Below, one piece after another: positions 1,364 through 32,000 of a stretch of 32,000 nt of DNA; positions within the stretch are counted from its first letter, which is position 1; the number at the start of each line of letters is the position of its first letter. A model generated the notes under the pieces. It had not been told where the DNA came from. It did not search any database and was given only the letters and a program-made list of their open reading frames with translations. The position numbers and the translations under genes were made by a program. This stretch comes from Candidatus Brocadia sp. (GTDB lineage Bacteria; Planctomycetota; Brocadiia; Brocadiales; Brocadiaceae): assembly GCA_021650915.1 (NCBI GenBank), contig CP091279.1, positions 2,700,001 through 2,732,000 on the forward strand, in the 5' to 3' direction.

Positions 1364-3691
1364 TTAGTTCTTCCCCCCTGGTTTATCTCCTTGACGGGCA
1401 GCTAATGCCCTCAATTGCTGCTCTAATTGCTGATAATTTTTATTATCCGGGTAGTTCTTGCACAATCCGACTGCATACCGCAACGCTTTTTCAAACTCGC
1501 CTCTGTCCCGGTGAATTGTGGCCAGAGAAACCAGCAAATCACGGTCGTAAGGATTACGAGTTAATGCCCTTTTGAGAACCGATATTGCCTGTCCTGACAT
1601 TTCAAGCGAGTTCAGGGCAATTCCATAAACGTAATGGTATTGCGCATTCTCCGGGGCAAGCAGCGCAGCCTTGCGCAAATGGTGCAGGGCGCTCTTGTGA
1701 TTCCCGGCTCGAATCATCAACAGTCCCATTGCGTGATGTGCCGGCGCTGATTCTGGCGCAATTTCTAAGGCATTTTGTAAGATGACCCTTCCTTCTTCAT
1801 CGCGATTCTGCAGGCGGCAAACATCTGCAAGGTTGATATACCCCGGGACGAAGGCCGGCTCAATCTCAATCGCTTTTTTATATGTGGCTGCTGCACGGTC
1901 AAATTCACCTCGTTCGAGGTAGAGGTTTCCCAGGTTTATAAGTGTTGCCGGGTAATCGGCATTGAGCAACTGCGTCTCCTCGTATTCTTTTATAGCAACC
2001 TCGCTCTGCTGCCATGCTTCATTTGATAGCACGTCGGACGGTACCGCCGCTATGGAGCGGGCGGCAAGGGTACGCACCAGACGTACTGAATCCTGTAGCA
2101 CCGGCAACAGAAAATGCACGCGGTCTTTTGGCGGTAAGACATCCAGAGAGGCGACTGCCGCAGACCGAATAAGAGGATTGGAGTCTTGCAGCATTTTTCC
2201 AAGAGTTTTTAACGAGGATTCGTTGGGGTAATTACGCAATTGTAAGATCGCTGTGGCACGCACCATCGACGATTGCTGGTTGTCTTCTACTAAATGAACG
2301 AGATCGGCATCAGTGCCGGGGGTACAGCGGCTGGCGTCCCGGAATATCTCGCCATAATGCATTCCTGACTTTGGCTGACCGTACCACTTCGCGAAATGTT
2401 CTGCTGCCCATGCCGTCGACTTGTCTGCATGGCAATCGTTGCAGGCATTCGGCACACCGAGTTTCTTTGATAAGTCGGGTCGCGGAACACGGAAGCTGTG
2501 ATCACGGCGCGGATCGACTACCATGTAAGTACGAGCTGGCATATGACACTCGACACATTGCGATCCAGCAGAATCCAGCTTGTGAAAATGGTGCTCGTGC
2601 GAGCCGTATTTCTCCGGCTGGTGACACGAGTAGCATAATTCATTACCTTCCTTCCGGCGACGGGTAGTGTGCGGATCATGGCAATCCGTGCAGACAATCC
2701 CAGACTGATACATCTTGCTCTGCAAGAATGAACCGTACTCATAAACTTCGTCACGAATCTGTCCGTCCGGATAGTAGAGGTTCTCCTCCAGTACGTGCGG
2801 GTAGTGGGTATCCAGCAATGGTTTTCCGTGCACATAGTCCTCGCTGATGACTCCCCGGCGGCTGTGACAACGCGCGCACATCTCGACCTCTTTATGTCTG
2901 CGCCGTGGGGCGCTTGGCTTGTAGGTAGCCAGCTTCTTATCGAATATCCACGTCACTTCTTCGTCTTCGTCATTCTTTAATCGAATTGACAAGCCCATAT
3001 CCGTGTAGCCTTGTGTATCTTTGCCGTTTGCCTCTGCTTCTGCCCATTCAACGTGCCGTGAGCCCGGTCCGTGACACGCCTCACACGACACATCAATTTC
3101 AGACCATGTGGTATTGTAACGACCGCTGGCAACATCGTAATTTTTTTTCAGATTGGTGGAATGACATTCAGCGCACATATAATTCCAGTTCTGTGAAATC
3201 TTTGTCCAGTAGAGCATATCATCCGGCGGAATACGTTCGTTGCCGTAAATATGAAACCAGCGCTGGCCGCCTTGTTCTTTCGGCCTTGTATCCCAGCACA
3301 GAGGCAGGGTTTGCAGGCGACCTTTGGGAAACTCAACAAGATACTGCTGCAAAGGCCGCACACCGAAGGTGTATGCAATGGCGAATTCCTGAAATGCGCC
3401 TCCTTCACCTTCAGTAAAAACAAAATACCTGCCATCCCTTTTGTAAAACTTCGATGTTATACCCAAGTGATTGAACGAGGCGTTGTTGAAATCGCCAAGC
3501 GCCGTTGCATCAGTAGCAAAGTCCATTGCGAGATCATGATCGGAACCTGTATATTGTGCATAGATATTTTCATGGCACGGTTTGCATGTCTCTCTGCCAA
3601 CATACTGTGCTTTTATTGCCTCTTGCGTGGAAATATTCTGCTGTGCTTTATGACAGCCAATGCATATCAGAAAAGACACGCAAACAATCAT
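1364..3691 (-). CDS. Octahaem c-type cytochrome lipoprotein fused to HEAT-like and TPR repeats
   Basis: ORF 1364..3853, trimmed to ATG 3691 (MIVCVSFLICIGCHKAQQ; lipobox ICIGC) because codons 1-54 read through a repeat hairpin. It has eight CxxCH motifs: CKPCH, CAECH, CEACH, CARCH, CTDCH, CYSCH, CVECH, CNDCH. These are followed by HEAT-like repeats (NPLIRSAAVASLDVL, SVRLVRTLAARSIAAV). About 6 TPR-like repeats (e.g. YINLADVCRLQNRDEEGRVILQNALEIAP) run to the C-terminus. Confidence 0.85.
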   Translation of the reverse strand: MIVCVSFLICIGCHKAQQNISTQEAIKAQYVGRETCKPCHENIYAQYTGSDHDLAMDFATDATALGDFNNASFNHLGITSKFYKRDGRYFVFTEGEGGAFQEFAIAYTFGVRPLQQYLVEFPKGRLQTLPLCWDTRPKEQGGQRWFHIYGNERIPPDDMLYWTKISQNWNYMCAECHSTNLKKNYDVASGRYNTTWSEIDVSCEACHGPGSRHVEWAEAEANGKDTQGYTDMGLSIRLKNDEDEEVTWIFDKKLATYKPSAPRRRHKEVEMCARCHSRRGVISEDYVHGKPLLDTHYPHVLEENLYYPDGQIRDEVYEYGSFLQSKMYQSGIVCTDCHDPHTTRRRKEGNELCYSCHQPEKYGSHEHHFHKLDSAGSQCVECHMPARTYMVVDPRRDHSFRVPRPDLSKKLGVPNACNDCHADKSTAWAAEHFAKWYGQPKSGMHYGEIFRDASRCTPGTDADLVHLVEDNQQSSMVRATAILQLRNYPNESSLKTLGKMLQDSNPLIRSAAVASLDVLPPKDRVHFLLPVLQDSVRLVRTLAARSIAAVPSDVLSNEAWQQSEVAIKEYEETQLLNADYPATLINLGNLYLERGEFDRAAATYKKAIEIEPAFVPGYINLADVCRLQNRDEEGRVILQNALEIAPESAPAHHAMGLLMIRAGNHKSALHHLRKAALLAPENAQYHYVYGIALNSLEMSGQAISVLKRALTRNPYDRDLLVSLATIHRDRGEFEKALRYAVGLCKNYPDNKNYQQLEQQLRALAARQGDKPGGKN

Positions 3692-3721
3692 CGAAAGGCG
3701 TAACCACAAACAAGTCCCACG

Positions 3722-3763
3722 TCCTCCCCCTTTATCCCCCTCTGAAGGGGGACAGGGGGAGGA
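3722..3763. repeat. C-tract/G-tract nested hairpin
   Basis: TCCTCCCCCtttaTCCCCCTctgaAGGGGGAcAGGGGGAGGA. Outer and inner stems are both perfect. It lies just upstream of the proposed cytochrome start. Confidence 0.7.
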
Positions 3764-3929
3764 AAGTGGGTTGTGATAAATTTGCCGAGAAAATAAGTTT
3801 TTATATAACAATACGATACGTCCAACCGTTGGAAAAAACACGAATAAACGCATAGTGTCTGTGCCTTATAAACCTTGCAACACTTTAGTTTTTTGAAAAA
3901 TTACTATAATAACGATGTTACCGCACCGT

Positions 3930-7383: not shown

Positions 7384-9804
7384 CTATTTTTGAGTGCCCT
7401 GCGCCGCAGCGTCTGTTGCGGCACGTGCGTCATGAGTTTCGATAGTCACCTTCGGGATATGACCGGTAAAGCGTGACTTGCGTTCGGCGCCAATGGCCTC
7501 GACGACCGGTGTTCCGAGGTCGATACCCACGTCGGCGGTTTCGTCCGCCGAAAACATCATAGGCTGCGTTCTCTCGATCCGTCCCTCCGCCACCTTCTGG
7601 CCATTCACGAAGATTGTGCCCATGCCTCCTTTGCCCAACCCGCCGCCGTCATAGGCGAAGTCGAACTTGATGGTCGCCTTGCCGGGAGCGAGTGGCTGCG
7701 TTGCAACAATGCTGCTTCGCTGCATGCCAAGCCAGTTGTAGTCATACGCAGGCTTGCCGTCCCTGACGTAGAGCGCCCAGCCGCCGAAGCGTCCGCCTTG
7801 TACCAGAATGGCACCATTCGCACCGCCCTCCGGCACCTCGACCTCGGCGGTGATGGTCTTGGACTTGTTCTTCACGCTAAGGAAGACGTTTTCCAGCATG
7901 CCGGTCATGCCCTCGGCCAGGGTTAGTGAAGTTCGCCCTGCCATCAAGTCAGGGCGGCCGACCGCTGATGCCAAGGCTCGTTCAAACAGCCGGTCATCAA
8001 GGGGCAGCACATGGCGTTTCTCGGCTTCTTTCATGAAAAGCGCCTGCATCTCCGCGAGCTTCTTCGGGTTCTTCACGGCGAGATCGTAGGTCAGGCTGAA
8101 GTCGGCGCGGGCGTCATACAGCTCCCAGACATCATTTTGCAGGGGATTGCGCGACTCCCGCTCCCATGGCGCCCGGTGGATAGTCCGCGCGAACCAGCCG
8201 TCGTGGTAAATGGCGCGGTTGCCGGCAATCTCGAAGTATTGGATAACGTGACGGTCATTGGCTTTGGCATTGTCGAACGTGTAGACCATGCTCACGCCTT
8301 CCATTGGAATCTGCGGCGTGCCGTCGACCACTTTCGGTTCCGGCAAGTCTGCTGCTTCGAGAACAGTCGGCGCCACGTCAATCACATGGCTGAATTGGGT
8401 ACGGGTCTCGTTCTTCGCCTTGATGCCCCTGGGCCAGTGGACCACCATGCCGTTGCGGGTGCCGCCGAAGTCCGATGCCACCTGCTTCATCCAGCCGAAC
8501 GGCGCATCAAACGCCAGCGCCCAGCCTGCAGCCATGTGGGGGTAAGTCTCGGGCGATCCCCATGCATCGAGCGCCTTGAGCAGGTCGGGCACCTCCTCAC
8601 GCACACCGTTGAAGTAGGTATATTCGTTGAACATACCATTCTCGCCGCCTTCTGCACTGGTGCCATTGTCGCCGGCGATATAGAAAATAAGGGTATTTTC
8701 AAGCTGTCCAGTTGCCTCGACTGCCTTGAGCATCCGGCCGATTTCGTGATCGGTGTAATCGAGATAGGCAGCGAATACTTCGGCCTGATGCGTGAACAGA
8801 CGTTTCTCATCGGCGGACAGCATGTCCCAATCCCTGATCGCCTGAGGCTTCTGCGCAAGCTTCGTTCCTGCCGGAACAATGCCGAGCTTGATCTGACGGG
8901 CAAGCGTTTCTTCGCGCAGTTTATCCCATCCCTGGTCAAACTTGCCTTTCCAGCGGGCAATCCATTCCCTGGGCACATGGTGTGGCGCATGCACGGCCCC
9001 GGGCGCGAAATAGACGAAAAAGGGTTTGTCCGGCGTCAGAGCCTTCTGGTACTTGATCCAGGCAACCGCCTTGTCCGTCATGTCGGTCATGAAGTGGTAG
9101 TTTGGATCGTCCGGCAGTTCGACCTGGGTCACGCCGTCGAACAGGAACGGCGCCCACTGGTTTGTTTCGCCTCCGATGAAGCCATAGAATTTGTCAAAGC
9201 CCTGGTGGGTCGGCCAGCGGTCGAAAGGGCCAGAGACACTGGTTTCCCACGCAGCGGTTTCATGCCATTTGCCAAAAGCCGCCGTGCTGTAACCATTCAG
9301 TCGCAGCATTTCCGCCAGCGGAGCCGTCGCATTGGGTATCTGGCCCGTTGCCCCCGGAATAGATGTCGCCATTTCTGTGATGAAGCCCATGTTGACGGTG
9401 TGGTGATTGCGGCCAGACTTGAGCGCAGCCCTGGTCGGCGAGCACAGGGCAGTGGTATGAAAGTTGTTGTAGCGTAATCCGTTCTGCGCCAGGCCGTCGA
9501 GTGTCGGAGTGACGATCGGACCGCCGAACGTGCTCGTTGCGCCAAAGCCCAGATCGTCGATCAATACGATCACCACATTCGGGGCGCCGGACGGGGCCTT
9601 GACCTCATCGTGGGGTGGCGCCTTTACCTTGCGTGCGTCGAGCTCCTTGTAAACCGGACGCTTCGGCTCCGGGATGGGCAGGATCGTGCGGTCGAGTTTG
9701 TCGGCAGCCTCCTGGGTGCCTGTCGGACCAAAAACCGCAGGCACTATCAGCCCTATAGCGGTAAGAACCATAAATCTCGTCCATTTCCTTACTGTCGTTT
9801 TCAT
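7384..9804 (-). CDS. Large arylsulfatase (about 800-aa class, canonical C-S-P-T-R signature)
   Basis: 806-aa ORF with an N-terminal signal. Motifs seen: NVVIVLIDDLGFG, TTALCSPTRAALKSGRNHH, FGKWHE. A long C-terminal beta-rich extension is present. The stop lies 12 bp upstream of the next sulfatase start. Confidence 0.9.
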   Translation of the reverse strand: MKTTVRKWTRFMVLTAIGLIVPAVFGPTGTQEAADKLDRTILPIPEPKRPVYKELDARKVKAPPHDEVKAPSGAPNVVIVLIDDLGFGATSTFGGPIVTPTLDGLAQNGLRYNNFHTTALCSPTRAALKSGRNHHTVNMGFITEMATSIPGATGQIPNATAPLAEMLRLNGYSTAAFGKWHETAAWETSVSGPFDRWPTHQGFDKFYGFIGGETNQWAPFLFDGVTQVELPDDPNYHFMTDMTDKAVAWIKYQKALTPDKPFFVYFAPGAVHAPHHVPREWIARWKGKFDQGWDKLREETLARQIKLGIVPAGTKLAQKPQAIRDWDMLSADEKRLFTHQAEVFAAYLDYTDHEIGRMLKAVEATGQLENTLIFYIAGDNGTSAEGGENGMFNEYTYFNGVREEVPDLLKALDAWGSPETYPHMAAGWALAFDAPFGWMKQVASDFGGTRNGMVVHWPRGIKAKNETRTQFSHVIDVAPTVLEAADLPEPKVVDGTPQIPMEGVSMVYTFDNAKANDRHVIQYFEIAGNRAIYHDGWFARTIHRAPWERESRNPLQNDVWELYDARADFSLTYDLAVKNPKKLAEMQALFMKEAEKRHVLPLDDRLFERALASAVGRPDLMAGRTSLTLAEGMTGMLENVFLSVKNKSKTITAEVEVPEGGANGAILVQGGRFGGWALYVRDGKPAYDYNWLGMQRSSIVATQPLAPGKATIKFDFAYDGGGLGKGGMGTIFVNGQKVAEGRIERTQPMMFSADETADVGIDLGTPVVEAIGAERKSRFTGHIPKVTIETHDARAATDAAAQGTQK

Positions 9805-9969
9805 TTTCTTCTCCTTTCCGTGTCCCCTCGTGTTTGATTGGTTTGTTCATTCCACCTTCCCGATCTCTCCAGGCTTCCAGGTCTTGTCGACTCACAGATC
9901 GGGGTAAACATCAGCACAAAAAGGGTTGTGCGTATGATGCTTTTGGCAGGTCTCATATACAGGGTCTCA

Positions 9970-10486
9970 TCAGGCTATATTTAATATTTTGCCAAGAGCA
10001 ATATCCCTCATAAATTCTTTAAGCGGCAAAACATGGACTTCATGATCCTTTAAACGGGTATCCCCCAGATAAATCCCAAAGCATTTCTGAAGTAGTTTTT
10101 CCCGGAATCGTTGATTAAGCACACCTGAGTATTCTTTCTTCCAAACAGTCGCAGCCTTCACCTCAAAGCCGATTGCTTTCTTCCCGCGCATCCAAACAAA
10201 ATCAATCTCTGTCTGATTGGGAGTCCTCCAATAATACAATTCGCCACCACAACCGGAAATATTCATCCACAACGATCCAAGACCCTTTCTCCAGCGCTTC
10301 TACTTCAAAACGAAACTGATCCGTACTTCTCATCAATTTCAAGAGCTCTGTGGAACGAAGCAAATCAAACCACCTGGCCTTTCCCAAAACCATCCGGAGC
10401 CAGGTCGTTTTCCCGGTTCCTCTCGGACCAAAGAGAAAAAAGGAGTGTTGTGGTAAAGGTAATAACCGTGTATACATGGTTATCAT
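9970..10486 (-). pseudogene. AAA ATPase (AAA_14 + DUF4143 type) remnant with a large internal deletion and frame change
   Basis: ORF 10202..10486 carries the N-terminal Walker A part (FFLFGPRGTGKTTWL ... SWIVVDE). The overlapping ORF 9970..10272, in another frame, carries only the C-terminal DUF4143-like tail (GGELYYWRTPNQTEIDFVW...GFEVKA). Intact family members are about 400 aa as I recall, so about 200 codons are missing. Confidence 0.65.
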
Positions 10487-10669
10487 TTTGACGGCAATAT
10501 TGCTCTATGTCTATACAAAAATACTTCCGGCCTGCCTCTCTCAGGTTTCGTGGGCGTGTGGTTTCATGGGTGGTGTCGTGTTCCCTTTCCTGTTTTAAAT
10601 CAATACCATTTGGTCTCGCCAGTCGGGGCAAAATAATTGTTCTTAAAGCGCCTCCCTTTTCGGCCGGTT

Positions 10670-11233
10670 CTATTTGCCCAGCATCCCCTGTTTCAGGGAA
10701 GTATCCACGGGCTTCTCCCCCAGCCAGATGGCAAACAGGGCCTTTTTGAAATCAAGCCCCTTGATTGTGCCCATCAGTTTTCCTTTAATCGATACGTACA
10801 CCCCTTCTCCCGGCGCGTAGACAATATCATAGATGTCCCCTTTTCTGGCATCTTCTGTGAAGAAGGAATTGAACGTATCGGCTCTCTCCTTAATAGGTCC
10901 GGGATTTCCCATGGTGGCATTGGCAAATCCTTCGTTCCACCCTTCAACCAGTTGTTTGCAGGAAACTCCGTCATAGATAAACTGTAATCGGATTGCCATC
11001 GGTTCATCAGCATTCACAATCTTTTTTGCACTATCCTCTTTTGTCTTGAGATAAAGCCCCCCTGCATAAGCCTTGACGAAAAATTTTTTGCGTAGTCCGG
11101 CCCCATTCAACACGAGATGCTCCTTTCCTGACATGATCGTGTCAGGCAGGTTTACGCCTCCGATTTCTTTTGCCTGTGCCGTCGTTATGATGGTCAAAGC
11201 AAAGAATATTACGATAAGAATTTTTCTGATCAT
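10670..11233 (-). CDS. Chalcone isomerase-like (Chalcone_3 / fatty-acid-binding-type) periplasmic protein
   Basis: 187-aa ORF with signal peptide MIRKILIVIFFALTIITTAQA. LNGAGLRKKFFVKAYAGGLYL and KALFAIWLGEKPVD are the blocks I associate with bacterial CHI-like proteins. Confidence 0.7.
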   Translation of the reverse strand: MIRKILIVIFFALTIITTAQAKEIGGVNLPDTIMSGKEHLVLNGAGLRKKFFVKAYAGGLYLKTKEDSAKKIVNADEPMAIRLQFIYDGVSCKQLVEGWNEGFANATMGNPGPIKERADTFNSFFTEDARKGDIYDIVYAPGEGVYVSIKGKLMGTIKGLDFKKALFAIWLGEKPVDTSLKQGMLGK

Positions 11234-13875: not shown

Positions 13876-15366
13876 TTATTGTAACTCCGCCAAAAGCTGC
13901 TGGAATTCCTCTGATTCTGTGAGTATCCGATGGGCGGCGTCACGCAGGTCGTCGACCTGCTTGTCAGACAATTTGAACGATGTGGGCATGCCCTTGAAAT
14001 AGTGACGTTCCGCCTCATCCCGTAATGCATCAAACTTGACCTCAACGAGATAAAATTTGATGTCACCGCATCCGCCAGGCTCCGTCGATATCGGACCGTC
14101 TCCGCACCGGCTTTTCTGGACCTCCTCAGCCCACCGGCGGAAACTCTCCCGCGCCAACATAACGGTCTCGTAATTATACCTCGTGACCGATACGGACGAA
14201 TATGCGCCAAACATTGCGGATATCGTTGGCGCCCGTCCAAAGAGACTCCACTGGCTGCTTACTTCCGTCTCTGCATTCACAACGATGATAACCACCTTGT
14301 GGGTATTTTCGAGTTTCAAATATTTCAGCGTATTCCAGAAACTCCCCATGACAAGTATCCTGTCAAGCGCGGCCCTCAATCCAAGATTATCAGAAACTCC
14401 ACCATCAACAAGATGGATATATTTATGCTTTGCAACATCCTGATAGACATCTACGTTGCTCACCTGATGAAATGACCGTGACGTAATATCGTGCTCTTTC
14501 CGCACCCTCTCTGCTTCTTCAGGGAGTTTAAAGCCACAATCGTTGGAGTAATTACGAAGGGTGATGGGTGTGAGGACGACGGGCACGGCGGATGATGCCG
14601 TTACGGCGCGAGCAACGGGATAACCGGACAAGTCAGAACAAATGATATCAAATGCATCCTGATGAAATGCGACTCGTATACCTGTTACCATATCTGTTGC
14701 GTTGATAAAGACCATAGGGGATTGGCCTTTCCTCGCTGCCATATCCTGAAAGGTTTTCTTCTCAAAAAGGATCTTGTCGTAATACTCCGCAGCAATGTCA
14801 CTCCGTGCAAAAAACGGAGAGAAGAGGCGTACCCAGTTGTCGGGTCGTATCAAAAACCTTCGGGTAAGGCCGCCCTGCACATTCCTTTTCAGGAATTTCT
14901 GCTCGAAATCCTCAAAGATGCGATCACCAAAGAGACCATAATACGCAGCGGTGAAACTGCCTCCCGAGACGCCAGAAATACCATCAACCTCATGGAGCAG
15001 CATGCGTTTTTTGCCGTTTATGGTCACCGCTGTGTTTCTCAACTCTTCAAGGACACCATAGGAAAAGGCAGCAGCCCGTGTACCACCACCAGAGAAGGCG
15101 AGGAATACCATCATTTCGTCTGAATTTTCAGGCTGACCCATAAACTTTCCACGGTAACCACTGTTCGGATCAACCGTTGCGAGGGGTTTGTTGACGGGAT
15201 AATGCATGCAACCTGAAATTAAAAAAATGGCTATAAGAATACTTGCGGAAATGCGGATAGGCCGAGACATTTTACCCAGTGTAGTTCTCCAATGATTCAT
15301 AATATTCCTTCGCTCAACAATGTTGTTTATGGGTGAGTTAACCCTGTCAAGGTTAGTTTTATTCAT
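13876..15366 (-). CDS. Patatin-like phospholipase, probable lipoprotein
   Basis: 496-aa ORF. The oxyanion motif is FSGGGTRAAAF, the nucleophile elbow is GVSGGSF (GxSxG), and the catalytic Asp motif is DGGVSDNLG. The lipobox is SILIAIFLISGC. The start is ambiguous: ATG at 15366, 15300 or 15270. The last gives a textbook 21-aa lipoprotein signal. Confidence 0.9.
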   Translation of the reverse strand: MNKTNLDRVNSPINNIVERRNIMNHWRTTLGKMSRPIRISASILIAIFLISGCMHYPVNKPLATVDPNSGYRGKFMGQPENSDEMMVFLAFSGGGTRAAAFSYGVLEELRNTAVTINGKKRMLLHEVDGISGVSGGSFTAAYYGLFGDRIFEDFEQKFLKRNVQGGLTRRFLIRPDNWVRLFSPFFARSDIAAEYYDKILFEKKTFQDMAARKGQSPMVFINATDMVTGIRVAFHQDAFDIICSDLSGYPVARAVTASSAVPVVLTPITLRNYSNDCGFKLPEEAERVRKEHDITSRSFHQVSNVDVYQDVAKHKYIHLVDGGVSDNLGLRAALDRILVMGSFWNTLKYLKLENTHKVVIIVVNAETEVSSQWSLFGRAPTISAMFGAYSSVSVTRYNYETVMLARESFRRWAEEVQKSRCGDGPISTEPGGCGDIKFYLVEVKFDALRDEAERHYFKGMPTSFKLSDKQVDDLRDAAHRILTESEEFQQLLAELQ

Positions 15367-15374
15367 AATTTTTG

Positions 15375-16169
15375 CTAATCAATCCAGCCCTGCTCCTTGA
15401 ATCGCGTCTTAAGATGGTCGGCGATTTCCTTGGCGACCTGCTTGGCCCGGCCGCCAATCTTGGCTTTGCCGCTTGCCTCTCCGTACACCTTCATCCCGCC
15501 GCTGACGATGAGCCCCGCCGGATTGGCGGTGGCAATCCAGCCGGCTGCCCCCAAGGCCGTCCCCGGGCCTTTGCTGCCGCCCGCCTCTACGGTGCCGCCC
15601 CCGAGTTTTCTCAGCCCCTGGGCCGTCACCTGGTAGCCCTCGGCCACCACCTGCAACTTTGACGAACCGGAGCCAAATCCGATGGTCATGCGTTTTACGG
15701 CGCTGCCCTCGCTAAACGTGAGGAGATAGCCCCGAATCAGGATGTCGTTGGTCTCAGGCATCATTTCCTTATTATACCGTTCCGCTGGCATGCCCATACC
15801 GCGAATCGCCTCTACCAACTCTGTCGCAATTTCAGCGCCTATCTGACGGCCGGTCTCGATCTCCTCTTCGGTTTGGGGCGTTTCGTGCTCGGCGTACTCA
15901 CCGGCAATCGAGGAATCCGATGGGACATCACCATACGTGGCAACGAAGTCATACACCAGGATGTGATCGGGACGGGGAATCTTCCCGTGCACGAGTTGTT
16001 GCTGGTCGGAAACCTTGGTTGAGGCGCACCCGGCAAGAAATGCCAGGGCGAACAGACCCGCTACGATGGCCGACGTTTTTTTCTGAAGTGACGGAACGCC
16101 TGCCGATGATTTCATGAAGAAGTTGAGTGGCTGGTGGTCCTGTGCGTCATCTTTGTTTTGATTATTCAT
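15375..16169 (-). CDS. Lipoprotein, DUF4410-like
   Basis: 264-aa ORF. The lipobox is FALAFLAGCAS; an alternative start MKSSAG lies 18 codons in. ILVYDF after the signal and a Gly-rich C-terminal half (GFGSGSSKL, GGGTVEAGGSKGPGTALGAAGWIATANPAGLIVSGG) are present. The family name is from memory and tentative. The stop lies 8 nt before the patatin ATG. Confidence 0.55.
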   Translation of the reverse strand: MNNQNKDDAQDHQPLNFFMKSSAGVPSLQKKTSAIVAGLFALAFLAGCASTKVSDQQQLVHGKIPRPDHILVYDFVATYGDVPSDSSIAGEYAEHETPQTEEEIETGRQIGAEIATELVEAIRGMGMPAERYNKEMMPETNDILIRGYLLTFSEGSAVKRMTIGFGSGSSKLQVVAEGYQVTAQGLRKLGGGTVEAGGSKGPGTALGAAGWIATANPAGLIVSGGMKVYGEASGKAKIGGRAKQVAKEIADHLKTRFKEQGWID

Positions 16170-26836: not shown

Positions 26837-27376
26837 ATGAAGATAGCAAAAAGAAAGTTTTTCATGGGACTGGTAGCGTTAATAGTCCCACTCTTCCTGG
26901 TGAATACGGTAAACGCACAAGATGTATCCAACAAATTGAATATGATGGAGATCGTTATTTCAAATCTTATTGCGCGGGTAGAGGCGCTGGAAAAGCGGGT
27001 GAACGCATTAGAAAAAAATCTCGCCCCGGGGGTTGGAAAAGCGGCTAAAAAAGAGGTTGCCGGGAAAGAGCCTGCGAGACCCATTCTTACGGATGGATTT
27101 GAAGATATTGGGAATGGATTTTTTGTGAGGGGCGTGCGGTTTAATCCGTTTGGTGACAACGTGCTTTTTATGGGCGAGATAGCGAACCGGTCGGAAAAGA
27201 ACTATCGTTTTGCAAAATTTAAGCTGGAAATCTATGATGATCGTGATCTGTTGGTTAAAAAAGAAGAGTTTACCATACCGGATAGCCCGAAAGATAGCAT
27301 AAAGCCCTTTGAGACCATGATCATCGGGGTAGACGCTGGCCTTATTCACCGATATGTGCTTCGTGCAGATGATTAG
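26837..27376 (+). CDS. Hypothetical secreted protein: coiled-coil plus small beta domain (FxLYD/DUF3426-like resemblance only)
   Basis: 179-aa ORF with signal peptide MKIAKRKFFMGLVALIVPLFLVNTVNAQ. A heptad-like segment reads LNMMEIVISNLIARVEALEKRVNALEKNL. The C-terminal domain contains GEIANRSEKNYRFAKFKLEIYDDRDLLV. Confidence 0.55.
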   Translation: MKIAKRKFFMGLVALIVPLFLVNTVNAQDVSNKLNMMEIVISNLIARVEALEKRVNALEKNLAPGVGKAAKKEVAGKEPARPILTDGFEDIGNGFFVRGVRFNPFGDNVLFMGEIANRSEKNYRFAKFKLEIYDDRDLLVKKEEFTIPDSPKDSIKPFETMIIGVDAGLIHRYVLRADD

Positions 27377-27671
27377 GGAGTACCTGTTTCCGAGCCCAGG
27401 ACCCTTAAGTCTGCGCGACAAGTGAGGCGATAGGGCGCGGAAATTCTTCATGCTGTCAGCCACCAGCGGTTTTCCTCCTCACTGTTTGCCGGGTAACAGG
27501 GCATTCCGCATCTGGTTTTTCGTATGCTGTTCCCGTCGTGCCATCCTGATCCCTGCCTCCTTTTGTCCTCCGTTCCCTTGTTAACCCAAAAAGAAAGTTG
27601 CCACCACAAACAGAGCGCCTTCTTCATTTTTGACATTTACTTTTGAAGGAATTTTGATAGGCTTATTACTA

Positions 27672-27788
27672 CCCAACCCGAACGAGTCGGAAGAGAAATA
27701 CGGTAGGGGCAGGTTTCAAACCGGCCCCTACACAGTGTGAAAAAAACATTTTTGCCGAAAATGTCAAAATATTTTTTATTAGACACTA
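27672..27788 (+). repeat. 120-bp three-copy element, copy C, abutting the kinase start codon
   Basis: cccaacccgaacgagtcggaagagaaatacggGTAGGGGCAGGTTTCAAACCGGCCCCTACacagtgtgaaaaaaacatttttgccgaaaatgtcaaaatattttttattagacacta. The last A is the A of ATG 27788. Confidence 0.85.
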
Positions 27789-28882
27789 TGGATACAATGG
27801 ATACGCTAACAGGCATTGTAAATCAGGCCTTAGATTGTATAGGCAAAGGCATTATGATACAGGATATCAACCGTCGGGTGGTGTTTTTTAACCACGCCTG
27901 TGAAGAGATAACGAAATGGTCGCGGGCAGAGGTTATCGGAAAGGATTGCGGCGACATTTTTTTGTGCCATACCTCCACGGGGATGTGTTTGACGGAGAAG
28001 TTTTGCCCCGGCATGGAAATATTTCACGGAGGCCTCTCCCAGGGTTCGCGGGAACTCCTGATCAGACGGGGGGATGGAACCGAATCCTGGGTAAAAATGA
28101 GCGTTTCTCCTTTAAAAACCCCCGGGGGAAAAGTGACGCATCTTGTTTCCGTAATCGAGGATATTAGTGATATAAAGCGGTTTTCGGATGAGGTGCTCAG
28201 GTCGAAAACCCTGTCCACCCTTGGCGCATTTGCCGCGGAACTGGCACATGAGGTGAAGAACCCTTTAAATGCCATGAATATCCAGATGACGGTGCTGGAA
28301 CGGGAGATCCACGATATCAAGAAGCTCGGCGATCGGGCAAAAAAGGAATTACTTGACGTTGTCACGATCGTTCAGAAGGAACTGCATCGCTTGAGCGGTT
28401 TTGTCGAAGAGTGTTTGCATTTTTCAAAGACCGGTGAACTGAATAAGAGCAGCGTTCATGTGGGTGATCTCCTCAGCGAGATTGTTTCGTTGCTCCTGCC
28501 CCAGGCGCAATTACAGGGGATACAAATTGAATTCGTAATAAAAAATGCCTTGCCGGAGATAATGATCGACCGGGACAAGATAAAGCAGGCGATCCTGAAT
28601 ATCCTGATCAATGGCATTGAGGCAATGCCAGACGGAGGAATATTGCAGGTAAGTGCAAAGCGTATTGAACAGGAAATAGGTATCTCCTGTCAGGACACCG
28701 GGCCGGGGATACCGGATGAAATCAGGGACAAGATATTTCATCTCTTTTATACCACAAAAGACGGGGGTACCGGCATAGGGCTTTCGTTTGCACAGAACAT
28801 TGTCCAGGCCCATGGAGGTATCATACGGCTGGAGGCATCTTCCAGGGGAAGTAAATTTGTGATTGCGCTTCCTATAAGTTAG
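27788..28882 (+). CDS. Soluble PAS-domain sensor histidine kinase (NtrB/AtoS-like)
   Basis: ORF 27737..28882, trimmed to ATG 27788 because the first 17 codons (GTG start, MKKTFLPKMSKYFLLDT) are repeat sequence also present at 19261. No TM segment is present. The PAS domain has a Cys cluster. Kinase boxes: H-box ELAHEVKNPLNAM, N-box LNILINGIEAM, G1 DTGPGI, G2 GGTGIGL. The start remains uncertain (27737/27761/27788/27797). Confidence 0.85.
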   Translation: MDTMDTLTGIVNQALDCIGKGIMIQDINRRVVFFNHACEEITKWSRAEVIGKDCGDIFLCHTSTGMCLTEKFCPGMEIFHGGLSQGSRELLIRRGDGTESWVKMSVSPLKTPGGKVTHLVSVIEDISDIKRFSDEVLRSKTLSTLGAFAAELAHEVKNPLNAMNIQMTVLEREIHDIKKLGDRAKKELLDVVTIVQKELHRLSGFVEECLHFSKTGELNKSSVHVGDLLSEIVSLLLPQAQLQGIQIEFVIKNALPEIMIDRDKIKQAILNILINGIEAMPDGGILQVSAKRIEQEIGISCQDTGPGIPDEIRDKIFHLFYTTKDGGTGIGLSFAQNIVQAHGGIIRLEASSRGSKFVIALPIS

Positions 28883-28967
28883 GTGGATGGAAGGAGCGTG
28901 CAGTGCGGTTAGGGGGCGAGTTAGGGGTTAGATTAGACCTTCAGCAAATTTTTATTATACGATAAAA

Positions 28968-29007
28968 CCCCCCCTGAATCCCCTCCCGGGAGGGGATTCA
29001 GGGGGGG
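28968..29007. repeat. 40-nt perfect palindrome between the kinase and regulator genes
   Basis: CCCCCCCTGAATCCCCTCCC|GGGAGGGGATTCAGGGGGGG. Arms are 20 nt with no mismatch. Confidence 0.9.
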
Positions 29008-29051
29008 TGTAAGGCAGGAGCAGAAACCTTGAAATTCCTTAGTATCAGCCT

Positions 29052-30398
29052 ATGACAAAACCAAGGATCTTACTAATTGATGACGATAAAACCGCGCTCG
29101 ATGGGCTGGTGAAGATTTTGGCGCACGACGGGTATCCGGTCTCCGGAGCCCTGTCTGGCTATGAGGCATTAAACCTCCTCTCCGGGAAGACCTTTGATAT
29201 CGTTGTGACGGATATGAAGCTGCCCGGTATGGGCGGATTGTCCCTGATTCACGAATTGCGGAAGAAAGAAGAGCCGATGGCCATCGTGGTTATCACGGCC
29301 TATAGTTCGGTTAAAACGGCTGTTGAGGCGATAAAGTGCGGGGCGGACGATTATCTGACGAAACCCGTAAACGTTGAAGAGTTGGAGCTGGTATTGGAAA
29401 AGTTGTGGGAACGACAGCAACTCATTTTCCAGAACCGACTATTAAAGGAAAAATTAAAGGACAAGTATAAATCTTCTGAACTGGTGGGAAGCACCCCCCA
29501 GATGCAGGGTATCTTCAAGACCATTGAAGACGTTGCCCCCAGCGCCGCATCAATCCTGATCTTAGGGGAAACGGGGACCGGGAAGGAACTCGTGGCGAAT
29601 GCCATTCATTATCAAAGCGACAGGTCCAGCAAGCCCCTCGTGGCATTGCATTGCGCCGCCCTATCAGAAGGCGTTTTGGAAAGCGAGCTCTTTGGTCATG
29701 AAAAAGGGGCGTTTACCGGCGCCATTCAGGCGAGAAAAGGACGGTTTGAGATGGCGGACGGAGGCACCCTTTTCCTGGACGAAGTGGGCGAGATGAGTTT
29801 AAAGGTACAGGTGAAATTGCTGCGGGTTTTAGAGAAGGGTGAGTTTGAGCGTGTTGGCGGGGAAAAAACTCTGAAGGTGGATGTGAGATTGATTGCGGCA
29901 ACGAACCGAAACCTTGAAAGAGAGGTCTCGGAAGGAAGATTTCGCGAGGATCTGTTTTATCGGTTAAATGTCATCACCGTCCATTTGCCTCCGCTGAGGG
30001 AAAGGAGAGACGACATTCCCCTCCTTTCTAATTTTTTTGTTATTAAGTACATAAAAAAGTATAAAAAGGAGATCAGGGGATTTGATCCTGATGCAATGGA
30101 GGCACTTTGTTTGTATCAATGGCCGGGAAACGTGAGGGAGCTGGAAAACGTCATGGAAAGGGCTGTCGTGCTCTGTAAAAAAAGCATGATCGCCATCGAC
30201 CTTCTGCCCAAAAACATTGTTCCAAACAAGGAAGATGTCTCTATGATCAAAATTCCCCTGGGCACTTCTCTAAAAGAAGCCGAAAAGGAAATTATCCAAA
30301 AGACACTTCAGATGGCGCAGGGAAGTAAGAAGGAAGCCGCAAAAATATTGGGTATCTCGAGCAGAAAAATTGAATATAAAGTAAAGGAGTGGAGTTAG
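29052..30398 (+). CDS. Sigma-54-dependent response regulator (NtrC family: REC + AAA+ + Fis HTH)
   Basis: 448-aa ORF. The REC domain has DDD10-12 and phospho-acceptor D54 (IVVTDMKLPGMGG). AAA+ Walker A is GETGTGKE, the sigma-54 contact loop GAFTGA is intact, and Walker B is LFLDEV. The C-terminal HTH is KKEAAKILGISSRKIEYKVKEW. Confidence 0.92.
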   Translation: MTKPRILLIDDDKTALDGLVKILAHDGYPVSGALSGYEALNLLSGKTFDIVVTDMKLPGMGGLSLIHELRKKEEPMAIVVITAYSSVKTAVEAIKCGADDYLTKPVNVEELELVLEKLWERQQLIFQNRLLKEKLKDKYKSSELVGSTPQMQGIFKTIEDVAPSAASILILGETGTGKELVANAIHYQSDRSSKPLVALHCAALSEGVLESELFGHEKGAFTGAIQARKGRFEMADGGTLFLDEVGEMSLKVQVKLLRVLEKGEFERVGGEKTLKVDVRLIAATNRNLEREVSEGRFREDLFYRLNVITVHLPPLRERRDDIPLLSNFFVIKYIKKYKKEIRGFDPDAMEALCLYQWPGNVRELENVMERAVVLCKKSMIAIDLLPKNIVPNKEDVSMIKIPLGTSLKEAEKEIIQKTLQMAQGSKKEAAKILGISSRKIEYKVKEWS

Positions 30399-30575
30399 AA
30401 GCGAAATTTTTTCAAGCATCTTTTTCCTGTCTGCCTGGATTTCCGCAAAATTTTCATTTAATACGCCCCTCTTGTAAAAGCATCTCTTTCGGGTCATCGC
30501 ATCACATAAAAAGACGCACGGTTTAAAGATATTCAAAAAATATACTTATGACTTTTGTGCGGCTTAAAATGGCAA

Positions 30576-30591
30576 TTGGCATATCTTTTGT
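30576..30591 (+). promoter_or_regulatory. Candidate sigma-54 (-24/-12) promoter
   Basis: TGGCAT-atctt-TTGTt compares with consensus TGGCAC-N5-TTGCW: GG at -24, correct spacing, and GT instead of GC at -12. It lies 95 nt upstream of ATG 30686 and directly downstream of a sigma-54 activator gene. Confidence 0.45.
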
Positions 30592-30603
30592 TATTTTGAA
30601 AAA

Positions 30604-30637
30604 CGGCATGAGTATCTTATGGTGAAGATACATGCCG
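30604..30637 (+). promoter_or_regulatory. 5'-UTR stem-loop at the predicted transcript start
   Basis: CGGCATGagTATCTT-atggtg-AAGATACATGCCG has a 13-bp stem with a 2-nt bulge. It begins about 12 nt after the -12 element. Confidence 0.45.
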
Positions 30638-30685
30638 CATTTTAGAATTAACATTTTTTGGTTTTACAAGGAGGGTGAATAGCGT

Positions 30686-31339
30686 ATGTCAATTATGTCA
30701 GATGCGTATATGAAAATGTTTCCGATGGAAGCAGAGAAGAAGGTTTCGGCTGGCAAGCGTAATCCTGTTTTGGAAGTGCCTGAGTTTAACACGGCATGGA
30801 AGCTTTACCGGGATACCAGTTTGGATATTGTGAAACGTTACGAATACATGGCTCAATGTGTCGGCTTTACTGATAAGGATACTGCGGCTATTAAGGAATC
30901 AAAGGATATTATAGCTGCAAATTTGAAGGCAATCCTTGATCATATCTATTATGAAAAACTCATAACCGACCCATGGCTCTCAAGATGGTTCAGAGACGAT
31001 AGTGGCAAAATAGCCAGGGAGTACGTTGACATAAGACGGGCAAGACAACAAAGGTTCCTGCTTAAGATACTGGAGTGTAAATGGGATGAGGAATTCTGGA
31101 ATTTTGTGCGCTGGGTGGGGGCTGTGCATGTGCCCATCTTTGGTTTCGAAGATCTTTATATACCGATAAGGCTGAATCTCGCCTTATGGGGGTATATACA
31201 TCAATATTTGTTCAACCTCTTTGCTCAGGAACTAAAAAATGATCCGGAAAAACTGCGCAGGATCACAACCGCGTGGACAAAACTTTTTTGGATAATTATC
31301 GACATTTATCACATCGATTATTTTGGTCCCTGGATGTAA
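30686..31339 (+). CDS. Stand-alone protoglobin-domain haem protein
   Basis: 217-aa ORF with RBS AAGGAGGG 10 nt upstream. It can be aligned along its length, from memory, with archaeal protoglobin: FTDKDTAAIKESKDIIAANLKAILDHIYYEKL; RRARQQRFLLKILECKWDEEFWNFVRWVGAVHVPI (His148 as proximal His candidate); ITTAWTKLFWIIIDIYHIDYF. No additional output domain is present. Confidence 0.75.
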   Translation: MSIMSDAYMKMFPMEAEKKVSAGKRNPVLEVPEFNTAWKLYRDTSLDIVKRYEYMAQCVGFTDKDTAAIKESKDIIAANLKAILDHIYYEKLITDPWLSRWFRDDSGKIAREYVDIRRARQQRFLLKILECKWDEEFWNFVRWVGAVHVPIFGFEDLYIPIRLNLALWGYIHQYLFNLFAQELKNDPEKLRRITTAWTKLFWIIIDIYHIDYFGPWM

Positions 31340-31369
31340 TGTTTTCATGAGACATTCGGTGGTTTTCCG

Positions 31370-31406
31370 CCCCATACTCCCTCGTTTACGCGAGGGAGTA
31401 TAGGGG
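31370..31406 (+). terminator. Stem-loop between protoglobin and ferredoxin (weak intrinsic terminator/attenuator candidate)
   Basis: CCCCATACTCCCTCG-tttacg-CGAGGGAGTATAGGGG, about 15 bp with one bulge. The T-run (ttgaaatttttt) starts several nt after the stem rather than immediately. Confidence 0.4.
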
Positions 31407-31472
31407 ATGTTTGAAATTTTTTAGCATCAGGCGTAGGGAGAATATCCTGAGAAATGAGGAGGAGGCGCTCCT

Positions 31473-31670
31473 ATGAAGAAATCTGTTGTCTGGTTTGAAG
31501 AGAGTTGTATTAAGTGTGCAATGTGTGCTGAAGAAGCTCCTGAAGTTATTGAGTTTGAAGAAACGGGCGGGCCGAGGTTAAAGGAGGGGGTTGATATTAC
31601 CCAGCATAGTGAAAAGATCAAGCGGGCTGCTCAGTATTGCCCGAAAGATTGTATAAAACATCATTTATAA
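31473..31670 (+). CDS. Small single-cluster ferredoxin ([3Fe-4S]/[4Fe-4S], CxxCxxC...CP type)
   Basis: 65-aa ORF with RBS GAGGAGGAGG upstream. CIKCAMCAEEAPEVIEFEE...AAQYCPKDCI matches the monocluster ferredoxin pattern C-x2-C-x2-C ... C-P. Confidence 0.8.
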   Translation: MKKSVVWFEESCIKCAMCAEEAPEVIEFEETGGPRLKEGVDITQHSEKIKRAAQYCPKDCIKHHL

Positions 31671-31720
31671 TTGCCATTTGAATAAATTTTTCTTTGTCAA
31701 ATCGTTCTATAAAAACTTTT

Positions 31721-31871
31721 GTAACACTTTAGTTTTTTGAAAAGGTAGGGGCGAAGCATTTGCCTGCTTGGGGTGTGCAGGCATTTATGCCAATTGATGG
31801 CAAATGCTTCGCCCCTACACCGTGCGGAAACATCGTTGTTGTTGCCATTTTTCAAAAAATTAAATTGTTAC
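31721..31871. mobile_element. MITE-like element, 151 bp, GTAA-type TIRs, GTAG-hairpin cargo, 8-bp target-site duplication
   Basis: Left TIR is gtaacactttagttttttgaaaag (31721-31744). The reverse complement of the right end (31847-31871) is gtaacaatttaattttttgaaaaat. The cargo hairpin is GTAGGGGCGAAGCATTTGCC...GGCAAATGCTTCGCCCCTAC (31745-31818). The direct repeat aaactttt immediately flanks both ends (31713-31720 and 31872-31879). The whole element is a reverse-complement homologue of 3877-4026. Confidence 0.8.
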
Positions 31872-32000
31872 AAACTTTTTTATATGAGATAAATATATTC
31901 GGTGTACAGAAAATCTCTGCCCGCTTTTTTCAATGAAAGGTTGTGCTGCGAGACACCAAAAGTTATGATACTATGCGGAACGCCATTGGCATATTGAAGC

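Follow-up and report, generated by a model that had tools for sequence, protein, structure and literature searches.

What does a stand-alone protoglobin do when it lies downstream of a two-component system and next to a small ferredoxin in a bacterium that oxidizes ammonium anaerobically (an anammox bacterium)? Protoglobins have been known structurally since 2008 and are widely engineered, and their physiological role is unsettled. The question is raised by a 32-kb stretch of Candidatus Brocadia DNA (henceforth 'the window', meaning the whole stretch that was analysed), which matches contigs of three Brocadia assemblies (L001-L003). An earlier note on the window had listed four consecutive plus-strand genes, comprising a kinase, a sigma-54 activator with the GAFTGA motif, a protoglobin and, behind a stem-loop, a CxxCxxC...CP ferredoxin, and all of these are in place once small corrections are made to the coordinates. 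What is new here is a globin-plus-reductant module that appears to be under sigma-54 control and to have a separate ferredoxin as its reductant, together with a pair of dyads, unnoticed before, which accompanies the putative -24/-12 promoter motif upstream of the globin gene. The wiring of this module and the ferredoxin partnership are well supported by comparison of sequences across genomes. As for function, we consider the chances about even that the globin is a ferredoxin-reduced cytoplasmic haem enzyme for O2 and/or nitric oxide (NO) under a two-component sigma-54 regulon.

The third gene (30686-31339, plus strand), whose open reading frame (ORF) is preceded by AAGGAGG, encodes a 217-residue single-domain protein that belongs to the protoglobin family, as the earlier note had proposed: it scores 87 bits against the Pfam Protoglobin model (PF11563), for which the cut-off is 25 bits, with an E value of 1.8e-24 over residues 51-208. 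Pfam gave no reductase domain, and its assignment as a globin-coupled sensor was rejected because the ORF has the Protoglobin domain alone and no fused transmitter. His148 aligns with the proximal F8 His120 of the M. acetivorans protoglobin (by phmmer, and by hhalign with 87.7% probability) and either Tyr88 or Tyr89 aligns with its B10 Tyr61, the register being ambiguous by one residue; among distant relatives, 50 of 50 keep His148 and 50 of 51 keep Arg117. The AlphaFold2 model (predicted local distance difference test, pLDDT, 77.7; predicted template-modelling score, pTM, 0.72) is a predicted 3-on-3 globin fold with an N-terminal extension, and its best Foldseek matches in the PDB were the M. 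acetivorans protoglobin (MaPgb; template-modelling (TM) score 0.65/0.73, root-mean-square deviation 2.7) followed by globin-coupled-sensor domains, including that of AfGcHK. Taken together, the score against the hidden Markov model (HMM), the predicted fold, the F8 His and the B10 Tyr, which are the testable marks of the family, identify the protein as a protoglobin.

Metagenome-assembled genomes (MAGs) of Candidatus Brocadia encode proteins that match the globin at 100% identity, UniRef lists it under B. fulgida, and all 49 homologues of the globin (66-100% identity) are from the Brocadiales, namely Brocadia, Jettenia, Scalindua, Kuenenia and lineages from the Rifle aquifer. A scan of one genome per species across bacteria and archaea gave 45 globin loci, every one of them in the Brocadiales, and the Kuenenia and Brocadia globins are 70% identical. 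When distant globins were sought exhaustively with HMMER among 1.8 billion cluster representatives, the anammox globins formed one 50%-identity cluster, and the next full-length relatives outside it were at most 30% identical (P0052 was found at E 1.6e-17). Given the single cluster, the distance to the next relatives and the confinement of all loci to the Brocadiales, the clade is, as judged from these searches, isolated and anammox-restricted, and it is spread across the anammox families. One distant relative, P0050 from Cyanophora paradoxa, is a 2207-residue eukaryotic protein with four protoglobin domains. Eleven residues (C58, H86, D95, Q121, C131, R142, N164, H172, Y174, Y208 and H209) are invariant in the clade at positions where other protoglobins are hydrophobic; C58 (codon at 30857-30859) is Phe and Q121 is Leu in the others, and the codon for C131 lies at 31076-31078. 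The distal pocket might be made polar by these clade-specific residues, or they might provide a second site for a metal or for redox chemistry.

The fourth gene (31473-31670, plus strand) encodes a 65-residue single-cluster ferredoxin, in agreement with the earlier assignment to the Fer4 families: both Fer4_15 (E 8.8e-9) and Fer4_13 (E 2e-8) match above their Pfam cut-offs, the two scores being 36.4 against 22.4 bits and 35.2 against 24.5 bits. Its ligand motif, C12-x2-C15-x2-C18...C56-P, predicts a [4Fe-4S] cluster, and the four cysteines are invariant in 21 orthologues, among which overall identity falls to ~44%. Within 8 kb of the globin, an HMM built for this ferredoxin matched only the ORF immediately 3' of it; it did so in 28 loci, of which 25 belong to the 45 of the genome scan. 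A signal peptide was not visible on the globin and the ferredoxin likewise shows none, for which reason both probably act in the cytoplasm. Coupling to iron-sulfur proteins also occurs farther away in the family, as 4 of the 51 nearest non-anammox protoglobins are fused to a Rieske domain: the Anaerolineae MAG proteins P0059 and P0061 are protoglobin-Rieske fusions, and in P0054 there are, in addition, two CDGSH domains and Fer4_19. No account of protoglobin-Rieske fusions was found in the literature searched. Because iron-sulfur fusions are found in distant relatives and the ferredoxin adjacency persists, these observations favour a redox enzyme rather than a pure sensor.

Which regulator acts on the pair? 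The first gene (27761-28882, plus strand) encodes a soluble sensor histidine kinase of PAS-HisKA-HATPase_c architecture, with Pfam matches to PAS_9 (E 5.8e-15), HisKA and HATPase_c (E 7.6e-21); its longest ORF runs from a GTG at 27737 to 28882, and public gene calls begin at the ATG at 27761 and give 373 residues, as on L003. No hydrophobic segment was visible at its N-terminus. The PAS core (window 27840-28000) holds five cysteines, spaced C-x15-C-x5-C-x6-C-x5-C, which are invariant in 12 orthologues, as is the motif CHTSTGMCLTEK. The cysteines and CHTSTGMCLTEK are located where haem or flavin PAS domains hold their cofactor; against solved structures the domain gave generic matches only, the nearest being the MmoS and DosP PAS domains. 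Such a five-cysteine PAS domain is compatible with a thiol, metal or iron-sulfur redox sensor, which makes these possible modes of sensing. The second gene (29052-30398, plus strand) encodes a response regulator with Pfam matches to Response_reg (1.6e-28), Sigma54_activat (7.9e-73), an AAA lid and HTH_8 (1.2e-9), and its translation contains both GAFTGA and the receiver Asp (VTDMKLPG). With a REC domain, a Sigma54_activat domain bearing GAFTGA and a Fis-type helix-turn-helix it has the domain composition of an NtrC-type sigma-54 enhancer-binding response regulator. It lies below all NCBIfam equivalog cut-offs (best match AtoC, 493 against 714 bits), the kinase does so for its best match, AtoS (218 against 646 bits), and on these scores the identity of the two proteins as AtoS and AtoC was rejected. 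Orthologues of the activator in the Brocadiaceae are 79-91% identical among the matches listed; within that range all matches were from Brocadiaceae and a Kuenenia orthologue was not seen.

To what extent are these genes kept together? The neighbourhoods of the 45 species loci and of the contigs L001-L005 (obtained by exact-protein look-up) were surveyed with tblastn and HMMs. In Brocadia, Jettenia, Loosdrechtia and related Brocadiaceae (Type A; 17 species loci) the order is [kinase]-activator-globin-ferredoxin-receiver-only paralogue-multicopper oxidase. The linkage of globin, ferredoxin and activator that the earlier note expected in related genomes is thus present in 17 species-level genomes, with the kinase adjoining in 12 of them, and the globin-ferredoxin pair is present in 25, deep branches included. 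With the activator's receiver domain the receiver-only paralogue shares 57-76% identity. The oxidase, which lies downstream in 12 species of the genome scan and in 13 when the window's genome is included, is a two-domain protein of ~428 residues; it carries a signal peptide, shows 80-88% identity between genera and contains HCH and HxHG motifs, which are typical of multicopper oxidases. Its identification as NirK was rejected, as NCBIfam gives weak multicopper-oxidase/laccase matches and no NirK model. In the window's genome an insertion of a SNF2 helicase gene and two ORFs parts the ferredoxin from the receiver gene, and the displaced receiver and oxidase genes are found ~4-6 kb past the window end (L001 15321-17681; the counterpart in L006 is at 9001-10857).

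In deep-branching groundwater lineages (Type B; L025-27, L035, L038-40, L046, L048) the globin-ferredoxin pair is preceded by a 76-residue zinc-ribbon protein (CxxC...CxxC) and sometimes by a 59-residue membrane protein. These loci sometimes continue with a receiver and a TPR protein, and end with a secreted monohaem cytochrome c followed by a divergent CcoN-like haem-copper oxidase (e.g. L039 7468-11185; L048 7298-12206; L026 7685-11078). This oxidase matches Pfam COX1 at 3.3e-72 and scores 264 bits against TIGR00780, below the cut-off of 583, and it carries a Y-x5-HH motif, presumably at the position of the cbb3 cross-link tyrosine. Kuenenia (Type C) and Scalindua (Type D) have the globin alone. 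Genes beyond these modules are not syntenic between genera.

The gap between the activator and globin genes (30399-30685) is 287 bp long, 1 bp less than the earlier note had it, and the TGGCAT-N5-TTGT motif described there is present, at 30577-30591 and not from 30576. Alignment of the intergenic regions revealed what appears to be a promoter-enhancer module in this gap. A degenerate dyad (CGAAATTTTTTC; 30402-30413, plus strand), here called site 1, begins 4 bp after the activator stop codon; a second (CGCAAAATTTTC; 30444-30455, plus strand), site 2, follows 42 bp, or four helical turns, after site 1; and the sigma-54-type -24/-12 motif (TGGCATATCTTTTGT; plus strand) is 133 bp downstream of site 2, with a predicted transcript start near 30603. 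The pattern CGMAAWWTTTTC, which was derived post hoc, has two matches in the window, both in this gap, where 0.07 are expected. In metagenomes, which were scanned with a dyad-pair pattern, 58 loci matched, 34 of them with a -24/-12 motif nearby; the other 24 look like chance matches in A+T-rich DNA. When all sequences are taken together, 44 distinct dyad pairs have a promoter motif no more than 260 nt away; the start-to-start spacing of the dyads is 41-43 bp in every instance, and the promoter motif lies 131-136 nt after site 2 in 42 and 124 nt after it in the other two. The consensus promoter over distinct instances is TGG(C/T)A(C/T)-N5-(T/A)TG(T/C), and TGG(C/T)A(C/T)-N5-TTG(T/C) is found upstream of the globin in every activator-linked locus, even though the distance from promoter to ATG varies there from 95 to 272 nt. 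Such fixed geometry between enhancer and promoter on a diverging background would be expected of tandem NtrC-type activator sites, and from it we infer sigma-54 dependence and binding of the activator at the dyads.

The dyads are kept in the activator-linked loci and also in Kuenenia, where they are clearer (site 1 is the perfect palindrome AGCGAAATTATTTCGCT, and CCGAAAAAATTTCG follows) and where the module, with the promoter AGGCACGATGATTGC or TGGCACAACGCTTGC, precedes the stand-alone globin and no activator gene adjoins. The basal lineages L026 and L027 show the same geometry, with TGGCACGCAAGATGC, before the zinc-ribbon-globin-ferredoxin operon. Moreover, the window's own genome has a second full module outside the window (L001 15321-15500, with elements at 15321, 15362 and 15486), which comprises two dyads 41 bp apart and TGGCACAATTGTTGT and precedes the receiver and oxidase genes.

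Several observations weigh against the reading of the globin as a ferredoxin-reduced enzyme within this regulon, or narrow it. All loci come from one bacterial order, the Brocadiales, and the shared ancestry inflates the counts of conserved loci. Within the window alone the promoter motif is not significant, with 2 matches against 0.66 expected and 2 reached in 15 of 100 shuffles, which is why support for the promoter was taken from conservation across genomes; the -12 element of the Brocadiaceae is TTGT and the consensus is TTGC. In most Scalindua loci neither the dyads nor the -24/-12 motif is present, and a sigma-70-like promoter takes their place. The motif that the earlier note had picked out is conserved wherever the activator adjoins; the window taken by itself gives it no statistical support, and it is missing from most of Scalindua. 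In the Scalindua loci concerned (L023, L029-L031, L033-L037, L044, L045), TTGAYT-N16-17-TAYTMT lies upstream of the globin ATG at ~60-110 nt, with a conserved TAACAATCATTA behind it; because these elements replace the dyads and the sigma-54-type promoter, the comparison implies that the regulatory logic has changed in this marine genus. Kuenenia and Scalindua gave nothing convincing with the ferredoxin HMM within 8 kb of the globin; the suggestion of a globin with its own reductant finds support in the 25 of 45 species loci in which the ferredoxin follows, and none in these two genera; a search for ferredoxin homologues, which returned 6 matches from close Brocadia relatives only, is uninformative on ferredoxins elsewhere in their genomes. 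B. pituitae and a sister genome (L006, upstream of 6233; L012) have no kinase in the 6 kb before the activator; they retain the activator-globin-ferredoxin-receiver-oxidase order, and their cognate kinase is elsewhere or lost. The sequence similarity of the globin to solved protoglobins is weak (E 0.025), and residues 147-158 of the model, around the proximal His, have a pLDDT below 50. Finally, O2 and NO were assigned as substrates from the neighbouring genes alone, because two types of oxygen-reducing enzyme, the multicopper oxidase and the cbb3-like oxidase, are co-located with the pair in different lineages.

The claim that the circuit is dedicated to the globin did not survive. A dozen metagenomic contigs have the activator and the module directly before the receiver and oxidase genes, with no globin-ferredoxin pair between, and in about ten others (L052, L057, L061, L062, L065, L093, L095, L096, L098, L105) the module precedes ruvC-mlaE-mlaF-mlaD-mlaC-vacJ; in these last copies the spacing is 132-135 nt, no activator gene adjoins, and the stretch from the module to ruvC holds a sigma-70-like TTGACA-N17-TATAAA. 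Since the module thus also precedes, and would also drive, the genes of the receiver paralogue and the oxidase, and stands before ruvC-mla in metagenomic relatives, the arrangement indicates that the circuit is a broader stress regulon in which the globin-ferredoxin pair is one conserved member.

How might such a system work? On the reading we prefer, the cytoplasmic PAS kinase would sense a redox, O2 or NO cue and phosphorylate the NtrC-type activator. The phosphorylated activator would bind the two dyads that lie 42 bp apart just past its own stop codon and from there switch on the -24/-12 promoter 133 bp downstream, which would transcribe the genes for the protoglobin and the 65-residue [4Fe-4S] ferredoxin. 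The ferredoxin would hold the haem ferrous, and the globin would turn over some small oxidant, the likeliest being O2 and/or NO, by scavenging of an NO-dioxygenase-like or oxidase-like kind, rather than merely sense it. In sister genomes the same transcript would extend into the receiver-only paralogue, a probable phosphate sink that would give feedback, and into the exported two-domain multicopper oxidase; in deep-branching lineages it would extend into the cytochrome c and the cbb3-like oxidase. Haem binding, electron transfer from ferredoxin to haem, the substrate and the inducing signal are all parts of this scheme that we infer. The scheme is consistent with several published observations: NO is an obligate free intermediate in anammox bacteria (PMC7814187), globins paired with reductants are described as working as NO dioxygenases (PMC3820574), and the M. 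acetivorans protoglobin is reported to have nitrite-reductase and peroxynitrite-isomerase activity in vitro (PMC4020757). Studies of oxygen tolerance in anammox bacteria name the cbb3 oxidase, flavodiiron proteins and peroxidases and no globin (PMC8862662, PMC10156729, PMC13253579).

Alternatively, the pair could be an anoxic N-oxide reductase, acting on nitrite, NO or hydroxylamine that arrives in the cytoplasm from the anammoxosome and thus performing anammox-specific and not oxygen chemistry; we regard this as unlikely. In its favour are the restriction of the globin clade to anammox bacteria and its presence in all anammox families. The catabolic reactions of anammox take place in the anammoxosome, which sits poorly with a globin and a ferredoxin that both lack signal peptides, and the conserved neighbours are enzymes of O2-reducing types and not N-oxide enzymes. 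Polar residues (Q121, N164, H172, Y174 and H209) where other protoglobins are hydrophobic speak for an N-oxide reductase, as does the reported nitrite reduction by the M. acetivorans protoglobin in vitro (PMC4020757). There is also the precedent of an unrelated haem enzyme by which, with a dedicated ferredoxin, nitrite is reduced and N-N bonds are made (bioRxiv 10.1101/2025.05.27.656397). On the same side, nirS and nirK are absent from most Brocadia genomes, whose nitrite reductase has yet to be identified; on the other, the proteins now proposed for nitrite reduction are HAO-like (PMC7814187). The more specific proposal that the anammox protoglobin-ferredoxin pair acts on anammox intermediates, by reducing nitrite or hydroxylamine or by scavenging NO or hydrazine, we consider improbable; if true, this would be the first protoglobin for which an enzymatic role in physiology is defined, and a candidate contributor to the unexplained nitrite reduction in Brocadia without nirS and nirK.

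As a second alternative, the protoglobin could by itself sense a gas or a redox change, or buffer a ligand, and contact the kinase, activator or receiver-only paralogue as feedback; the ferredoxin would do no more than set its redox state. Its S-globin lineage and its nearest solved folds, which include AfGcHK, HemAT and GsGCS, fit this proposal, as do its position among signalling genes (kinase, activator and receiver) and its persistence in Kuenenia and Scalindua without an adjoining ferredoxin. Set against these, the globin lies downstream of the promoter, as a target of the circuit, and does not share a transcript with the sensor kinase, no output domain is fused to it, and iron-sulfur linkage recurs both by adjacency and, in distant relatives, by fusion; on balance a sensor seems doubtful to us. 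That the gene order is inherited synteny without regulatory meaning, the motifs serving the activator gene's 3' end or some other purpose and an ordinary promoter expressing the globin, is highly improbable. For it, a single order supplies all loci, the motif is not significant in the single window, there is a weak sigma-70-like match at 30596-30623 and Scalindua uses a promoter of that type. Against it, the 131-136 nt from dyad to promoter is held while the flanks and the ATG distance diverge, the module accompanies the globin in Kuenenia without an adjoining activator gene, the same genome has a second copy ahead of its receiver and oxidase genes, and synteny between genera does not extend beyond the module.

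Returning to the preferred reading of a ferredoxin-reduced enzyme under sigma-54 control, further elements within and around the operon could affect its expression (all z values given for folds come from comparison with shuffled sequences). A hairpin in the predicted 5' untranslated region (30593-30648, plus strand) folds at -24.9 kcal/mol (z = -4.1). The distance from promoter to ATG is 109 nt in the window as against ~240-270 nt in most other Brocadia genomes (e.g. L006 7775-8000), and these longer leaders, in which blocks such as CATGAATATC and TTTTCATTGGAGGGGGG are common, could possibly be regulatory leaders or hold a small ORF. An Rfam scan of 27300-32000 returned chance hairpin matches only and no known riboswitch or leader RNA. 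Between the globin and ferredoxin genes a stem-loop with a 16-bp stem (31370-31406, plus strand) lies within a region (31340-31472) that folds at -51 kcal/mol (z = -3.8); no U-run adjoins it, and it may be an mRNA stabiliser or a partial terminator. A long inverted repeat 3' of the ferredoxin gene (31745-31818; z = -4.95) probably terminates the operon in the window's genome, to judge from its fold and the gene order in L001-L003.

In the kinase-activator gap, which is just 0-50 nt long in most orthologous loci, a terminator-like scan found a perfect 42-nt G+C-rich palindrome (28967-29008; z = -4.0), which could be a terminator or a repeat element. A relative of it, together with the next ~40 nt, also occurs 5' of the receiver-only paralogue (L001 ~15740-15823), and because this related sequence recurs there, it suggests that the 5' region of the activator gene was duplicated together with its receiver domain. 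At the window edge (31984-32000), the globin promoter's ATTGGCATAT is repeated in ATTGGCATATTGAAGC, which the window end cuts off and which lies ~100 nt ahead of the SNF2 helicase gene. At the other end of the window an 829-residue protein (1364-3853, minus strand) has HEAT and TPR repeats as well as motifs of multihaem cytochromes c (Cytochrome_C7, paired CXXCH) and is apparently unconnected with the globin finding.

The literature searched describes neither this gene, nor the pair, nor the regulon, and it holds no link between a globin and anammox, in keeping with the earlier statement that no regulon of such architecture had been described. Within the same literature, the arrangement of a dyad, 42 bp, a second dyad, 133 bp and a promoter is the first concrete sigma-54 regulon proposed for anammox bacteria, and it can be used to enumerate the sigma-54 regulon in complete anammox genomes. 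For the protoglobins, the locus provides a clade with a candidate electron donor, a candidate regulator, a putative promoter-enhancer module and presumed co-regulated genes, and thereby makes function directly testable. The globin could also be a missing piece of the handling of O2 and NO by anammox bacteria, which are used to remove nitrogen from wastewater.

How does this system compare with those already known? To our knowledge, archaeal protoglobins have no known partner or regulon. The Brocadia globin has its Pfam family, single-domain architecture, predicted fold, F8 His and B10 Tyr in common with MaPgb (PDB 2VEB, 3ZOM) and ApPgb (PDB 7UTE), and differs from them in being bacterial, confined to anammox bacteria, only ~19% identical, rich in clade-specific polar, Cys and His residues and encoded with a dedicated ferredoxin behind a sigma-54-type promoter. 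Globin-coupled sensors (AfGcHK, HemAT, GsGCS, BpeGReg) belong to the same globin lineage and are among the top structural matches, but the Brocadia globin has no fused kinase, MCP or GGDEF output domain. The kinase and activator have the architecture of NtrB/NtrC-like pairs such as AtoS/AtoC, their best NCBIfam matches, and ZraS/ZraR, from which they differ in the soluble kinase with its five-cysteine PAS domain and in their targets. A small dedicated ferredoxin is the electron donor of a haem enzyme in cytochrome P450 systems with Fer4_13/15 ferredoxins. In KinJ-KinI, too, a small ferredoxin beside a haem protein is the obligate donor, ferredoxins of such pairs having one cluster or two; this is an analogy of organisation only since the haem folds are unrelated (bioRxiv 10.1101/2025.05.27.656397); homology with KinJ/FzmP was rejected, that being a different family with no recognisable domains and a predicted haem ligand at His541. 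The protoglobin-Rieske fusions (25-28% identity), which are among the nearest non-anammox relatives, also couple a protoglobin to iron-sulfur electron-transfer modules, by fusion and with a [2Fe-2S] cluster, whereas the Brocadia globin does so by adjacency and with a predicted [4Fe-4S] cluster.

In NorR-Hmp and FhpR-Fhp a sigma-54 activator adjoins the gene of a flavohaemoglobin NO dioxygenase. It is this organisation that the Brocadia locus, by analogy, most resembles, without membership: in each case an enhancer-binding protein would activate the neighbouring gene of a globin that depends on a reductant for the detoxification of a gas. Membership in the NorR-flavohaemoglobin group was rejected, as the activator has a REC and not a GAF domain and the NorR model aligns only from residue 129, with 360 against 476 bits. 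The two systems differ at each step. Sensing in the NorR type is by a GAF non-haem-iron domain within the activator, and in Brocadia by a separate Cys-rich PAS kinase that would feed a receiver; the reductant of flavohaemoglobin is a fused FAD/NAD domain, and that of the Brocadia globin would be a separate 65-residue ferredoxin; and the globin itself is of the M lineage in flavohaemoglobin and of the S lineage in the Brocadia system.

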